A program made the position numbers and the translations under genes. A stretch of 64,000 nucleotides of DNA, taken from NCBI RefSeq assembly GCF_057098645.1, contig NZ_CM169472.1. One strand, given 5' to 3'. The notes under the pieces are model-generated. The model ran no database searches, was not told where the DNA came from, and saw only the letters and a list, made by a program, of their open reading frames with translations. Positions 8,987-32,749 of this stretch are shown here, one piece after another. The stretch's first letter is position 1. Each line of letters starts with the position of its first letter.

Positions 8987-9969
8987 TTCCTGATTATTTA
9001 ACTTTTATTCGCTTTCAGGATAAACGAAATCTGATATACATTTATGCTATTGGACTTATTCTGATAGGCTTTTATTGGAAAAATGCAGGGTTTACTTTTC
9101 CATCAGAGGATATTGGTGTAGTTAGTGGGATTCTGGCCCTGGTGCTGTATAATTTTATTTTTGATCTCAAGGCGTACTGGGCTTATAAATGCGTCACGAA
9201 GAATATCGATTTTTCGTGGTTTAAGAAAAAGCAGAACCACAAAATAGAATTATTTCTTACACAACCTCTGGTGGCAGGATTTCTGTCGTTAATCATGTTG
9301 AGTGCAATGAGTTGGGGGCTATACCAGCTTCTACCCTCGTTATATGCGCTGTTCCTGATTTCGTTACTTGGGCCGTTGGTCATCTTTCTGTTGTTTCGGA
9401 TGATCCGCACCAGTTATGTCAAGCAGGTCGCTATTTCAGTAGCGAAAAAAGTAAAATATAAAAGTCTGACTCGCTATGTGCTGCTTTCGGTGTGTATCTC
9501 AACGGTTGTTAACCTGCTTACTATCAGCCCGTTGCGTAACAGTGATTCTTTTGTGACAGAGGGGCAGTGGTTAACGTTTAAATCGATAATTGCATTGCTC
9601 ATTCTTTGTGGCGTAGTGTTGGCGATTAATCTATTTTTTCTGCGCTTCTCCAAGCGGTACGCTTTTCTGGGCAGGCTTTTTTTGCAGGAAATCGATCTGT
9701 TTTTCTCCAGTGAAAATGCGTTGTCGACCTTTTTTGCCAAGCCGCTTTGGCTTCGGTTATTCATATTGCTGGTTATTGAAGTGATGTGGATTACGCTGGT
9801 GTCGGTATTGGCAACGCTTGTGGAATGGCGGATTTGGTTTGAAGCCTATTTTTTACTCTGCTATGTACCGTGCTTAATTTACTATTTTTTCCATTGTCGG
9901 TTCCTCTGGCATAACGATTTTATGATGGCATGTGACATGTATTTCCGTTGGGGGCATTTTAATAAGTGA
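8983..9969 (+). CDS. ycdU: Polytopic inner-membrane protein YcdU
   Basis: 328 aa, multiple hydrophobic helices; ATGA overlap with the acyltransferase gene; position upstream of serX. Confidence 0.75.
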
Positions 9970-10120
9970 GGAAGTTACAGAAAGTGACCAGATAGCGCAT
10001 ATATGTTCTGTACTCTCTTGCGCATTTTGATTGTTGACTGAGCAATCAGACAGTTGATGTGCACGATTTCCCCTCGCCCTAACAGACGTGGGCGGGGGCT
10101 CCCGATGTGTGCAATATACG

Positions 10121-10148
10121 AAAAAAAAGCCCGTACTTTCGTACGGGC
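10121..10148 (-). terminator. Rho-independent terminator downstream of serX
   Basis: Plus strand A8 then GCCCGTAC-TTTC-GTACGGGC; on the minus strand this is a hairpin followed by a U-run just past the tRNA 3' end. Confidence 0.7.
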
Positions 10149-10161
10149 TCTTCTTTAAATA

Positions 10162-10249
10162 TGGCGGTGAGGGGGGGATTCGAACCCCCGATACGTTGCC
10201 GTATACACACTTTCCAGGCGTGCTCCTTCAGCCACTCGGACACCTCACC
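10162..10249 (-). tRNA. serX: tRNA-Ser (anticodon GGA), 88 nt with long variable arm and encoded CCA
   Basis: Reverse complement reads GGTGAGGTGTCCGAGTGGCTGAAGGAGCACGCCTGGAAAGTGTG...GGTTCGAATCCCCCCCTCACCGCCA; T-arm GGTTCGAATCC present. Confidence 0.9.
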
Positions 10250-10443
10250 AAATTGTCGTTCCTGTCTTGCTGGAACGGGCGCTAATTTAGGGAAATCATG
10301 ACCTGAGGTCAACAAACTTTTTGAAAAAATCGCGCGTTTATTCAAACTTCAATCAATATGTGGTTTTAATAAGCGAAATCTGCTTTTTTTGCCACCGACC
10401 ACGGATTTGTTATGCTGGTGGTCTTTGTAGATGATAACGATAA

Positions 10444-12892: not shown

Positions 12893-13384
12893 ATGAACAT
12901 ACTTCTCTCTATTGCAATCACAACAGGCATTCTCTCCGGTATCTGGGGATGGGTGGCTGTTTCCCTGGGCTTACTAAGCTGGGCGGGCTTCCTGGGCTGT
13001 ACGGCCTACTTTGCTTGCCCGCAAGGTGGGCTGAAAGGGCTGGCGATCTCCGCTGCAACCCTGCTTAGTGGCGTGGTGTGGGCGATGGTCATTATTTACG
13101 GTAGTGCACTGGCACCACATCTGGAAATTCTCGGTTATGTCATAACCGGTATTGTCGCGTTTCTGATGTGTATTCAGGCCAAACAGCTGCTGCTTTCATT
13201 TGTTCCGGGGACGTTTATAGGCGCATGCGCGACGTTTGCCGGGCAGGGTGACTGGAAACTGGTGTTACCTTCGCTGGCGCTTGGGCTGGTATTTGGTTAC
13301 GCAATGAAAAACAGCGGCCTGTGGCTGGCGGCGCGTAGTGCAAAGACGGCTCACCGTGAGCAGGAAATCAAAAATAAAGCGTGA
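12893..13384 (+). CDS. ycdZ: Inner-membrane protein YcdZ
   Basis: ATG 12893 (MNILLSIAITTGIL) inside ORF 12845..13384; hydrophobic throughout. Confidence 0.8.
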   Translation: MNILLSIAITTGILSGIWGWVAVSLGLLSWAGFLGCTAYFACPQGGLKGLAISAATLLSGVVWAMVIIYGSALAPHLEILGYVITGIVAFLMCIQAKQLLLSFVPGTFIGACATFAGQGDWKLVLPSLALGLVFGYAMKNSGLWLAARSAKTAHREQEIKNKA

Positions 13385-13411
13385 GGGGCACTCACGCTTT
13401 CGCTTAAACAG

Positions 13412-13445
13412 TAAAATGCCGGATTATTAATTCCGGCATTTTTAT
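13412..13445. terminator. Bidirectional terminator between convergent ycdZ and csgG
   Basis: ATGCCGGA-TTATTAAT-TCCGGCAT hairpin flanked by A-run upstream and T-run downstream. Confidence 0.65.
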
Positions 13446-17557: not shown

Positions 17558-17941
<384 letters not shown>

Positions 17942-18416: not shown

Positions 18417-18950
18417 ATGAAAACGCGTATTCATGTTGTGCAGGGTGATATTACCAAACTGGCCGTTGATGTGATTGTGAATGCGGCTAATCCGTCATTA
18501 ATGGGAGGCGGCGGCGTCGATGGGGCCATTCATCGCGCAGCGGGTCCGGCCCTGCTGGATGCCTGTTTAAAAGTCAGGCAACAGCAGGGCGATTGCCCTA
18601 CGGGGCATGCCGTTATTACGCTTGCAGGCGATCTTCCCGCTAAAGCCGTAGTGCACACCGTCGGGCCAGTCTGGCGTGGTGGTGAACAAAACGAAGACCA
18701 GCTTTTGCAGGATGCCTATCTCAATAGCCTACGACTGGTGGCGGCAAACAGCTATACGTCAGTGGCTTTTACTGCAATCAGTACTGGGGTTTATGGTTAC
18801 CCTCGTGCGGCAGCGGCTGAAATCGCAGTAAAAACCGTTTCAGAATTTATTACCCGTCACGCTTTACCCGAACAGGTATACTTTGTCTGTTATGATGAAG
18901 AAAACGCCCACCTCTACGAAAGACTCCTTACCCAACAAGGAGATGAATGA
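18417..18950 (+). CDS. ymdB: Macro-domain protein YmdB (O-acetyl-ADP-ribose deacetylase)
   Basis: 177 aa; macro-domain motifs [23 protein letters not shown]. Confidence 0.93.
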
Positions 18951-20373
18951 TTTGCCCCGGCTGGCGAGCGCGGTGCTGCCACTGTGTTCGCAACATCCCG
19001 GTCAGTGTGGTCTTTTCCCTCTGGAGAAAAGTCTGGATGCGTTTGCCGCCCGGTATCGTCTGGCCGAAATGGCAGAGCATACACTGGATGTTCAGTATTA
19101 CATCTGGCAGGACGATATGTCGGGTCGGTTACTGTTTTCCGCCCTGTTAGCCGCAGCAAAGCGTGGCGTTCGCGTCCGTTTGTTGCTGGACGACAACAAT
19201 ACACCCGGACTTGACGACATTTTACGCTTGCTTGACAGTCATCCCCGCATTGAAGTCCGGCTTTTTAATCCTTTCTCGTTTCGCTTGCTACGTCCGCTTG
19301 GTTATATCACCGACTTTTCCCGTCTCAATCGCCGTATGCACAATAAAAGTTTCACTGTCGATGGCGTGGTGACTCTGGTAGGGGGGCGAAATATTGGTGA
19401 TGCCTATTTTGGAGCAGGGGAGGAGCCACTTTTTTCGGATTTAGATGTCATGGCAATAGGACCAGTTGTAGAGGACGTTGCCGATGATTTCGCCCGCTAC
19501 TGGTATTGTAAATCGGTTTCACCCTTACAGCAGGTGCTGGATGTCCCGGAAGGTGAAATGGCGGATCGCATCGAGTTACCCGCCTCCTGGCATGACGATG
19601 CCATGACGCATCGTTATTTACGCAAAATGGAATCCAGCCCGTTTATAAATCATCTGGTTGATGGAACGTTGCCGCTTATCTGGGCGAAAACACGTTTATT
19701 AAGTGATGATCCGGCGAAAGGGGAGGGCAAGGCAAAACGGCATTCACTGTTACCGCAGCGCCTGTTCGATATCATGGGCTCACCCAGTGAACGCATCGAT
19801 ATTATCTCTTCCTATTTTGTACCGACACGCGCAGGTGTGGCGCAACTCTTACGGATGGTGAGAAAAGGGGTAAAGATTGCGATCCTAACCAATTCTCTTG
19901 CCGCTAACGATGTTGCTGTCGTCCATGCCGGATACGCGCGCTGGCGAAAAAAATTGCTCCGCTACGGCGTGGAATTATATGAACTCAAGCCGACGCGTGA
20001 ACAAAGTAGTACGTTACACGATCGCGGCATAACCGGTAATTCCGGTGCCAGCCTGCATGCTAAAACCTTTAGCATCGATGGTAAAACGGTGTTTATCGGC
20101 TCTTTCAATTTCGATCCACGTTCGACATTGCTCAATACTGAAATGGGCTTCGTGATAGAGAGCGAAACGCTGGCACAGTTAATTGATAAACGCTTTATTC
20201 AGAGCCAGTATGATGCGGCCTGGCAGCTCCGTCTGGACAGGTGGGGGCGGATCAACTGGGTTGATCGTCATGCAAAGAAAGAGATTGTTCTCAAAAAAGA
20301 ACCCGCCACCAGTTTCTGGAAGCGGGTTATGGTCAGACTGGCGTCGATATTGCCCGTGGAATGGTTATTGTAA
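18943..20373 (+). CDS. clsC: Cardiolipin synthase C (phospholipase D family)
   Basis: ATG 18943 (MNDLPRLAS) overlapping ymdB stop by 8 nt; two HxK motifs (RMHNKSF, LHAKTF). Confidence 0.88.
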
Positions 20374-20380
20374 ACGCGGC

Positions 20381-21538
20381 TTAACGGGCTGGTGCTTTAT
20401 CGTTCTCACGCTTAACAACCGGTTTACCAGAGAACAAAAACTTCAGTAACGGGATGCGCAAATGAATTTCATACAGAATTATCGCAATCCCTACTACGAA
20501 TATCAGGCCACAGAGAAAACCAAGCCAGTTGGAGGTGATGTGCGGTGTAATGTATGCGCCGAAAAACAGCGTTAACGGGTGGTGAACCAGATAGATAAAC
20601 AGCGATGCGTTAACAAAATAAGTCACCCGCGCTGACTGGAAGTTAAGCAAACGGTGGCCAAAGGAGAAGACCACATTCACCATCCACAGACCGAGGACCA
20701 TGGTGATCACCGACTCGGTTTCGTACATCCAGGCATCGCCACTGCCATAGCGCTGGTTGAGTAAATAAGCGACAAACGCCAATGCTGCTGCAAGGGTACA
20801 GCCACGAGACGGCGTGGTAAACAAGGCTTTAAGATGAGGGAAAATGAAAGCCAGTGCGCCGAGGATAAAGAACGGCAAATAAAATAGCGTTTGCATGACA
20901 ATAAAATTGAACATGCCGTTACTCAGAATGGGCGGATACACAATAAAAATCGTTCTTCTTATTACCGCATAGCCGATGCCGAGGCACAAAAAAATCACCG
21001 ATAGTTTTACCATCGAGAATTTTTTATTCGTTTTATCAGAATTTTCTAAATTATTTCTGATGCGTTTGAATATCCAGACGCACAGCGTCGTCATGACCAC
21101 TAACACCAATAAAAACCACAGGTGCGATATTAATTCCCAGGCTAACGTATTATATTTGTCATACAATGACAGCCCAGGCCAACTTTCCGCTTTCCCTTTG
21201 ACGTATTGCAGCATAATAAATTGCGGCAATGTCAGTAGGGGGATGGCTGTTAACATCGGGATCCCTACACGTTCGACACGTACTTTCCACCATTTTTTCA
21301 AGGGATAGCGTAAAAAAAGCATGTAGGAAAAGTACCCGGATATAACGAAAAATACCTGCATGCGGAACGAGTGGATGAAGTCATTAAAAAGGGTCAGCCA
21401 CAATGACGGTTCGGCGCTATTCACATGCCATGTATGGCTCGAATAGATTAAAGAAATATGAAAAGGGATCCCTAACAACATCAGCCAGGCGCGGATGGAG
21501 TCGAGGAAATATTCACGTTGCGCGGGTACTGGATTCAT
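20381..21538 (-). CDS. opgC: Osmoregulated periplasmic glucan succinyltransferase OpgC
   Basis: 385 aa polytopic membrane acyltransferase; recognised. Confidence 0.9.
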
Positions 21539-21820
21539 ATATGGTTAACTAATCTCGGATTTTTCGTCTTATCCCTGTCGGGTTATGCCTTTAGGCTTGT
21601 TGCCATAGCGACACCGACCTGACCGCGCCAGGCGCAGGCTTCAAGGTTTTTATGCATAGCATCATCGCTACCACTAACCAGAATGGAAGCGTCTGTAAGA
21701 CGGTTGATAAATAAATTTGCTGGCAAACCCTACACGAAGTCGATGCTTCTGTCTTTAGGAGAAGCACGGAAAGTGAAAACGGTTGCAATCAGGTGCTTAA
21801 TCCATGAGCCAGCGTGCTGA

Positions 21821-26003
<4,183 letters not shown>

Positions 26004-26113: not shown

Positions 26114-26130
26114 AAACAACGAGCCAATAA

Positions 26131-26160
26131 AAATACCGGCGTTATGCCGGTATTTTTTTA
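26131..26160 (+). terminator. Rho-independent terminator after opgGH
   Basis: ATACCGGCGTTATGCCGGTAT hairpin followed by T7. Confidence 0.75.
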
Positions 26161-26175
26161 CGGAAGAGGTATCAA

Positions 26176-26403
26176 ATGCGTTTAATTGTGGTGAGCATCA
26201 TGGTGACCTTGCTGAGTGGCTGTGGCAGCATCATTAGCCGCACTATACCGGGGCAGGGGCATGGCAACCAATATTATCCCGGTGTGCAATGGGATGTGCG
26301 TGACTCCGCCTGGCGTTATGTCACAATCCTTGATCTGCCATTCTCCCTGGTTTTTGATACTTTACTGCTGCCGATCGACATTCATCATGGCCCGTATGAG
26401 TAA
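26176..26403 (+). CDS. yceK: Lipoprotein YceK
   Basis: 75 aa; lipobox LLSGC. Confidence 0.85.
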   Translation: MRLIVVSIMVTLLSGCGSIISRTIPGQGHGNQYYPGVQWDVRDSAWRYVTILDLPFSLVFDTLLLPIDIHHGPYE

Positions 26404-26778
26404 TTAACGTTCATCCCACTCATCAGCTGCTGCGCGTCCTTCCTCGGTATCCAGCGGTGGCTCAAGCTGAAATTCCCCCTCGTCCCATTCATGTAATGTA
26501 TTCTCTTCCTGCCACTCCTGGCGGATCTCTATCTCATCATAGTCGCCATTAAAAACACTTTGCGCGGCTTCACCGCTAAGCATAGGTAAACATTCACCTT
26601 CTTCACCTTCGTCGGCAAAAAACTCAACTTGCCACATGATGTCGCCGTCCTGCAAAACGTATTTTTGGGCATTGAACTGTTGCACATTCGCATCTTCGGC
26701 GTCGATGCCGGGGTTGTCTGCAAGAAATTCTTCGCGTGCAGCGTCAATGGCTTCTTCAAGCGTTGCGTACATGGTCAT
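26404..26778 (-). CDS. msyB: Acidic protein MsyB
   Basis: 124 aa, very acidic; start MTMYATLEEAID. Confidence 0.9.
   Translation of the reverse strand: MTMYATLEEAIDAAREEFLADNPGIDAEDANVQQFNAQKYVLQDGDIMWQVEFFADEGEEGECLPMLSGEAAQSVFNGDYDEIEIRQEWQEENTLHEWDEGEFQLEPPLDTEEGRAAADEWDER

Positions 26779-31553: not shown

Positions 31554-32749
<1,196 letters not shown>

Follow-up and report, generated by a model that had tools for sequence, protein, structure and literature searches.

A probable intrinsic terminator of opgC inside the clsC coding sequence at a 7-nt convergent gene junction of Escherichia coli

Overlapping bidirectional terminators, reportedly described by Ju and colleagues in 2019, are said to be single hairpin regions, located downstream of both stop codons, that define the 3′ ends of both transcripts of a convergent gene pair. 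The clsC–opgC locus of Escherichia coli has several features in common with such elements (Wang et al. 2022, 10.1101/2022.10.23.513370), namely two convergent genes whose 3′ ends overlap and a hairpin within that overlap. However, the locus falls outside this class because its hairpin precedes the clsC stop codon and, unlike the bidirectional elements, the hairpin appears to serve opgC only, there being no U-tract on the clsC strand. With canonical Rho-independent terminators the opgC element shares a GC-rich stem, a 3-nt loop, a U6 tract and a transcript end within that tract; unlike them, it sits wholly in the coding sequence of the opposite strand rather than in intergenic DNA, and each of its bases is therefore also bound by the codons of ClsC.

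The closest published description of the pair is found in the ExcludonFinder study (Sanmartin et al. NAR 2025, PMC12288877), where convergent excludons are pairs whose transcripts overlap in at least 50% of 58 MG1655 transcriptomes. There, clsC-opgC is entry 40 of the 165 convergent excludons in Table 1, and 146 of the 165 have a terminator, predicted by TransTermHP, that falls within the neighbouring transcription unit. Two other pairs located in the DNA analyzed here, yceK-msyB and murJ-flgN, are also among them. The clsC-opgC pair does not differ in kind from these pairs and has the structural feature of an excludon, transcript overlap; its overlap is real, ordinary and already known. The published survey gives no locus-level anatomy, and what is added here is the placement of the terminator to the nucleotide, its connection to a Term-seq end and the apparent constraint on synonymous sites.

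The clsC–opgC junction and its convergent gap

The locus was analyzed in a stretch of 64,000 nucleotides (the window; contig NZ_CM169472.1 of RefSeq assembly GCF_057098645.1), to which all coordinates refer unless stated otherwise. The gene pair and its surroundings are as follows:

18417–18950, plus strand: ymdB, O-acetyl-ADP-ribose deacetylase and RNase III regulator, directly upstream of clsC
18952–20373, plus strand: clsC (ymdC), cardiolipin synthase C, with the K-12 start
20371–20373, plus strand: TAA stop codon of clsC, by direct reading
20374–20380, no strand: 7-nt spacer ACGCGGC separating the two stop codons
20381–21538, minus strand: opgC (mdoC), OPG succinyltransferase, with its stop codon at 20381–20383

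The plus-strand reading frame encodes a PLD-type cardiolipin synthase and ends in TGG TTA TTG TAA. On the other side of the spacer, the TTA at 20381–20383, read on the minus strand, is the TAA that ends opgC, a 385-codon reading frame on that strand with a score of 637 bits for the MdoC/OpgC equivalog NF003014 (NCBIfam; cut-off 338). RefSeq names the genes clsC and mdoC on identical DNA, and MG1655 has the same geometry (clsC at 1106355–1107776, opgC at 1107784–1108941). An earlier note on this DNA had placed the two stop codons, named the two genes and reported 7 nt between them, and it was correct in all three respects. The start of clsC differs by annotation: PGAP places it at 18892, giving 493 aa and a 59-nt overlap with ymdB, and the K-12 start gives 473 aa and lies 1 nt past the ymdB stop. 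The MG1655 annotation of ymdB is regulator of RNase III activity.

This layout is core to E. coli: 5422 of 5426 complete genomes contain the 131-nt junction without a gap. In the O157:H7 strain ECP19-198 (NZ_CP066759.1) the junction matched at two separate sites with a best coverage of 56%, a split that points to an insertion in, or a rearrangement of, the 3′ end of clsC or its vicinity. The spacer reads ATGTGGC in K-12 versus ACGCGGC here (two differences, at 20375 and 20377), and the embedded opgC terminator described below, 46 nt from the spacer, is identical between K-12 and the window; the 7-nt spacer itself appears unconstrained.

To place the gap among others, genes were remapped onto the window and the seven mappable convergent pairs of coding sequences were compared:

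yceK/msyB: gap of 0 nt
clsC/opgC: gap of 7 nt
murJ/flgN: gap of 39 nt
trhO/yceI: gap of 41 nt
ycdZ/csgG: gap of 64 nt
rluC/yceF: gap of 111 nt
flgL/rne: gap of 195 nt

A 7-nt convergent gap is thus not exceptional. The tighter pair, yceK/msyB (window 26124–26404), has yceK ending on the plus strand at 26403 and the stop codon of minus-strand msyB beginning at 26404. The sole terminator-like site for msyB is a minus-strand hairpin at 26132–26154 followed by a T-tract; it lies 273 nt downstream of the msyB stop, on the far side of yceK. As at clsC/opgC, the terminator-like site of the minus-strand gene lies beyond the small gap, but the msyB 3′UTR would span the whole of yceK (273 nt), as compared to the last 80 nt of clsC for opgC. 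Published RNA-seq values for yceK are 3.1 RPM sense versus 150.6 RPM antisense. In contrast to clsC/opgC, the 64-nt ycdZ/csgG gap (13375–13441) has a conventional bidirectional intergenic layout, with two palindromes that provide a hairpin and T-tract on either strand (approximately −13 to −14 kcal/mol each).

We also compared the pair across species, using ClsC as the query in 40 Enterobacteriaceae and Erwiniaceae genomes (the 80 loci of the full comparison include neither Salmonella nor Klebsiella nor Enterobacter cloacae). In all 40 Enterobacterales loci clsC and opgC are convergent neighbours, with gaps that range from −24 nt, an overlap of the coding sequences, to +168 nt; the gap is 7 nt in Escherichia, 15–20 nt in Citrobacter, 0 in Atlantibacter and 1–2 nt in Pseudescherichia. 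In the loci examined beyond Enterobacterales, opgC does not adjoin clsC.

A probable opgC terminator within clsC

We propose that the gap is as short as it is because opgC terminates outside it, at a Rho-independent terminator embedded in clsC, with clsC transcription running on antisense to opgC in a routine layout, an explanation that we regard as probable. The terminator, a 29-nt GC-rich hairpin followed by U6, would be encoded on the minus strand within the last 26 codons of clsC, and its parts are as follows:

20300–20328, minus strand: opgC terminator hairpin of 29 nt, AACCCGCUUCCAG-AAA-CUGGUGGCGGGUU, opposite clsC codons −24 to −15
20293–20298, minus strand: U6 tract of the terminator, opposite the clsC codons AAA AAA (Lys-Lys)
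20294–20380, minus strand: opgC 3′UTR of 87 nt, from the Term-seq 3′ end

The GC-rich stem has 12 pairs with one internal mismatch and is capped by a 3-nt loop. Its predicted folding energy is −18.5 kcal/mol, and the 61-nt context folds to −22.4 kcal/mol (z = −3.2 against 200 shuffles). The hairpin gives way immediately, on the minus strand, to C and then UUUUUU (20299–20293). A scan for consensus terminators overlooked this element because of the one internal U·U mismatch. The same scan returned a weak plus-strand hairpin at 20377–20391 (−3.6 kcal/mol), which is absent in K-12 and was rejected, and an Rfam scan of 19800–21950 gave no match near the gathering score.

A transcript end has been mapped to this element in vivo. 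The Term-seq data of Adams et al. (2021, eLife, PMC7815308; supplementary file 1, M63 0.4 sheet) contain a curated 3′ end at MG1655 1107697 on the minus strand, with an average of 45,967 reads, the class 'antisense to clsC' and the flanking sequence ACGCCAGTCTGACCATAACCCGCTTCCAGAAACTGGTGGCGGGTTCTTTTTTGAGAATAAT. We checked this string and found it to be exactly positions −50 to +10 around MG1655 1107697, a base that maps to window 20294, the fifth U of the tract. The end was curated in M63 only, one of three conditions, and comes from K-12, in which the element is identical to that of the window strain. It lies 87 nt beyond the opgC stop and 80 nt into clsC; this gives the opgC mRNA a 3′UTR of 87 nt, 80 nt of which (20294–20373) face the last 26 codons and the stop codon of clsC in antisense orientation and represent the minimal overlap of the mRNAs. 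The locus thus has the tested features of an intrinsic terminator: a hairpin, a U-tract and an in vivo 3′ end.

The earlier note had argued that the junction leaves no room for an intergenic terminator, so that the transcripts must overlap at their 3′ ends, and had proposed 3′ end mapping of both. The opgC end inside clsC bears this out, since a clsC mRNA extending as far as the clsC stop codon overlaps the opgC mRNA, and the ExcludonFinder listing of the pair is independent of that end. For opgC the mapping already exists in the published K-12 end past the opgC stop. What the note overlooked is the probable cause, a strong and conserved intrinsic terminator of opgC within the clsC coding sequence.

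Apparent constraint on clsC synonymous sites

Read on the clsC strand, the element is AAA AAA GAA CCC GCC ACC AGT TTC TGG AAG CGG GTT, encoding 12 residues. To assess how readily such a structure arises in this peptide, we generated 10,000 recodings in which the peptide was fixed and synonymous codons were drawn according to their usage in 54 window genes. A single recoding of the 10,000 was as stable as the real minus-strand terminator (−18.5 kcal/mol), with 0.5% reaching −15 kcal/mol and 5% reaching −12 kcal/mol. The stem contains the rare codons CCC, CGG and AAG, whose usage in the 54 window genes is 0.14, 0.08 and 0.22, respectively.

Comparison between species points in the same direction. 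The opgC hairpin is conserved in Escherichia and Citrobacter, between which ClsC is approximately 80% identical. Nine genomes of these two genera were compared over the last 99 codons of clsC: no variation occurs at 7 of the 11 degenerate codons within the element, whereas 5 of the 81 outside it are unchanged (Fisher p = 2.4e-5). The invariant codons include the AAA AAA of the U-tract, and the variable codons of the element fall in the loop and inner stem. From these sequence comparisons, the synonymous sites of clsC appear to be constrained to preserve the hairpin, beyond the requirements of the protein.

Different hairpins occupy the equivalent clsC position in further genera: Cedecea (−24.3 kcal/mol) and Buttiauxella (−21.3 kcal/mol), with a 5′ arm shifted by two codons, and also Kosakonia, Dryocola and Phytobacter. 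Across Enterobacterales, an antisense terminator-like site of −14 kcal/mol or stronger is present in the last 150 nt of clsC in 15 of 39 loci (38%), as compared to 4% of 273 windows drawn as controls from elsewhere in clsC; the genomes are related and the counts not phylogenetically independent, so the p-value of this 39-locus comparison overstates independence. The Erwiniaceae have an unrelated hairpin approximately 17 nt deeper into clsC: in Pantoea, Erwinia and Izhakiella a clsC-embedded hairpin with a T-tract lies approximately 91 nt before the clsC stop, at these loci:

Locus L022: embedded hairpin, region 4330–4422
Locus L025: embedded hairpin, region 1509–1599
Loci L032 and L052: embedded hairpin

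The reading frames of clsC and opgC share 24 nt in L022 and L025. The Erwiniaceae would seem to have solved the same problem independently with their hairpin.

Beyond annotation the meaning of these observations is slight; they provide a clean, nucleotide-resolved case of a terminator written in the coding sequence of the opposite gene. Such embedded terminators may pass for codon-usage oddities, the rare CCC, CGG and AAG codons being kept for RNA structure, and codon optimisation or a clean clsC deletion would destroy them. A clsC deletion that removes 20293–20328 would also take the opgC terminator, which could confound the phenotypes of clsC mutants.

The clsC strand and a possible role of the overlap

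Folded as clsC-strand RNA, the palindrome reaches −18.7 kcal/mol in context, which is not unusual against shuffles (z = −1.9). The hairpin cannot be the clsC terminator because it lies 43–71 nt upstream of the clsC stop and is followed on the plus strand by AUGGUCAG instead of a U-tract. A custom scan of the plus strand found no hairpin with a U-tract for 1.24 kb past the clsC stop:

20374–21616, plus strand: stretch past clsC, antisense to opgC, with no hairpin and U-tract site in the custom scan
21617–21655, plus strand: first terminator-like candidate past clsC, a hairpin of −10.2 kcal/mol followed by UUUUAUGC, in the opgC–opgG intergenic region

The ratio of C to G downstream of clsC reaches 1.4 at 20414–20494 and 1.8 near 21100, with no clear rut site. 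Published transcript data for this strand are sparse. The tables of Adams et al. (PMC7815308) contain no plus-strand 3′ end at the locus, and their supplementary file 2 lists no bicyclomycin-sensitive or Rho region for clsC, possibly due to poor clsC expression. The SMRT-Cappable-seq supplements contain no mention of clsC or opgC. In the total RNA-seq of Huang et al. 2020 (PMC7373196, Table S1c) the two strands of mdoC are at similar levels, 6.2 and 10.2 RPM, which fits clsC readthrough, and these sense and antisense values are to be taken with caution, as the strand column of Table S1c is inconsistent with Table S1b.

Together, these observations are consistent with the following course of events. 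The opgC polymerase would cross its stop codon and the spacer, enter clsC and release its RNA 87 nt downstream, at the end seen by Term-seq in K-12. The embedded element would be unidirectional, serving opgC only; clsC transcription presumably passes the hairpin, because the plus strand has no U-tract and the region is under translation. With no intrinsic terminator ahead of it, the clsC polymerase would then proceed antisense into opgC, where its untranslated RNA is most likely ended diffusely by Rho, whose involvement we assume, or by head-on encounters. With opgC ending inside clsC and clsC running into opgC, the two mRNAs would therefore be complementary over at least 80–87 nt. Any regulatory cross-talk would probably be weak, given how little either gene is expressed, and the arrangement is a routine compact convergent layout for E. 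coli.

The overlap might instead work as an excludon, in which a 3′ duplex or polymerase collisions, together with RNase III cutting, make clsC expression and OPG succinylation mutually exclusive. Besides the listing of the pair in the published excludome, the convergent adjacency kept in 40 of 40 Enterobacterales loci speaks for such a role, as do the site of action of both genes, the envelope, and the p19-captured RNase III products found on both (122–232 and 16–180 RPM); the position of ymdB directly upstream on the clsC strand would supply an attractive link. However, no increase of either mRNA is seen in rnc-14 and rnc-38 mutants (ymdC at 32.3, 28.8 and 15.0 RPM; mdoC at 6.2, 6.8 and 4.1 RPM). 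The p19 dsRNAs listed for clsC are 85–110 and 620–645 nt from its start, outside the 3′ overlap, and the excludon authors were themselves unable to validate convergent pairs by p19 data (PMC12288877). In addition, the gap, and hence the geometry of the overlap, drifts between genera from −24 to 168 nt, and polymerase collisions should be rare because both genes are weakly expressed. We therefore consider a working excludon unlikely. A large effect of the antisense interference that the earlier note had raised as a possibility is likewise not favoured by the rnc mutant values.

The p19-captured products on clsC, 21–22 bp in length, are at MG1655 (U00096.2) 1105660–1105689 and 1106199–1106222, corresponding approximately to window 19033–19062 and 19572–19595. 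They lie well upstream of the embedded terminator and thus point to antisense RNA along the clsC body, produced either by readthrough of that terminator or by an antisense promoter within clsC. This bears on the nature of the 20294 end, as a 3′ end borne by a hairpin could in principle reflect exonuclease trimming instead of termination. A longer opgC RNA would then be trimmed back to the hairpin, making the end a decay intermediate and the element mainly a stabiliser of the mRNA. The dsRNAs deep in clsC do indicate antisense RNA past the hairpin, clsC antisense reads amount to approximately 18% of sense reads, and Term-seq cannot tell termination from processing. On the other hand, a hairpin followed by U6, with the transcript ending inside that tract, is what characterises intrinsic termination, and the AAA AAA codons of the tract are conserved as well, although trimming would not need them. 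Trimming is in our view a less likely explanation than an excludon, and termination at the embedded element remains the reading that we prefer.

More doubtful again is a broader scheme in which the overlap of ymdB-clsC with opgC forms a conserved osmotic or stationary-phase switch, clsC readthrough silencing opgC upon induction of ymdB-clsC, the opgC 3′UTR destabilising clsC and YmdB, an RNase III inhibitor that would be made from the clsC transcript itself, tuning the cutting of the duplex; if this were true, the ymdB-clsC operon would carry its own regulator of its 3′-end antisense interaction. Finally, it is highly improbable that the hairpin belongs to the Ju and Wang type of bidirectional terminator, pausing both polymerases so that collisions end both transcripts: such terminators are reported to be widespread between converging genes in E. 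coli (10.1101/2022.10.23.513370) and the hairpin does fold on the plus strand too, but its plus-strand fold is unremarkable and lacks a U-tract, a clsC transcript ending there, ahead of the stop codon, could only be a truncated non-stop mRNA, and no plus-strand 3′ end is recorded at the hairpin in the Adams tables.

Several other features of the window were noted. An IS5-family element at 31554–32748 interrupts yceJ, a cytochrome b561 homologue; its transposase (326 aa, 31701–32681, minus strand) scores 367 bits against NF033581, and yceJ is intact in the closest RefSeq strain. The window genes are, one by one, approximately 100% identical to those of E. coli O145:H28 RM12761, yet the strain is a different one: csgC (17558–17890) is intact in the window and disrupted by IS3 in RM12761, approximately 10.3 kb (1–10300) are not collinear with RM12761, and the best 25-kb match among RefSeq complete genomes is only 98.8%.
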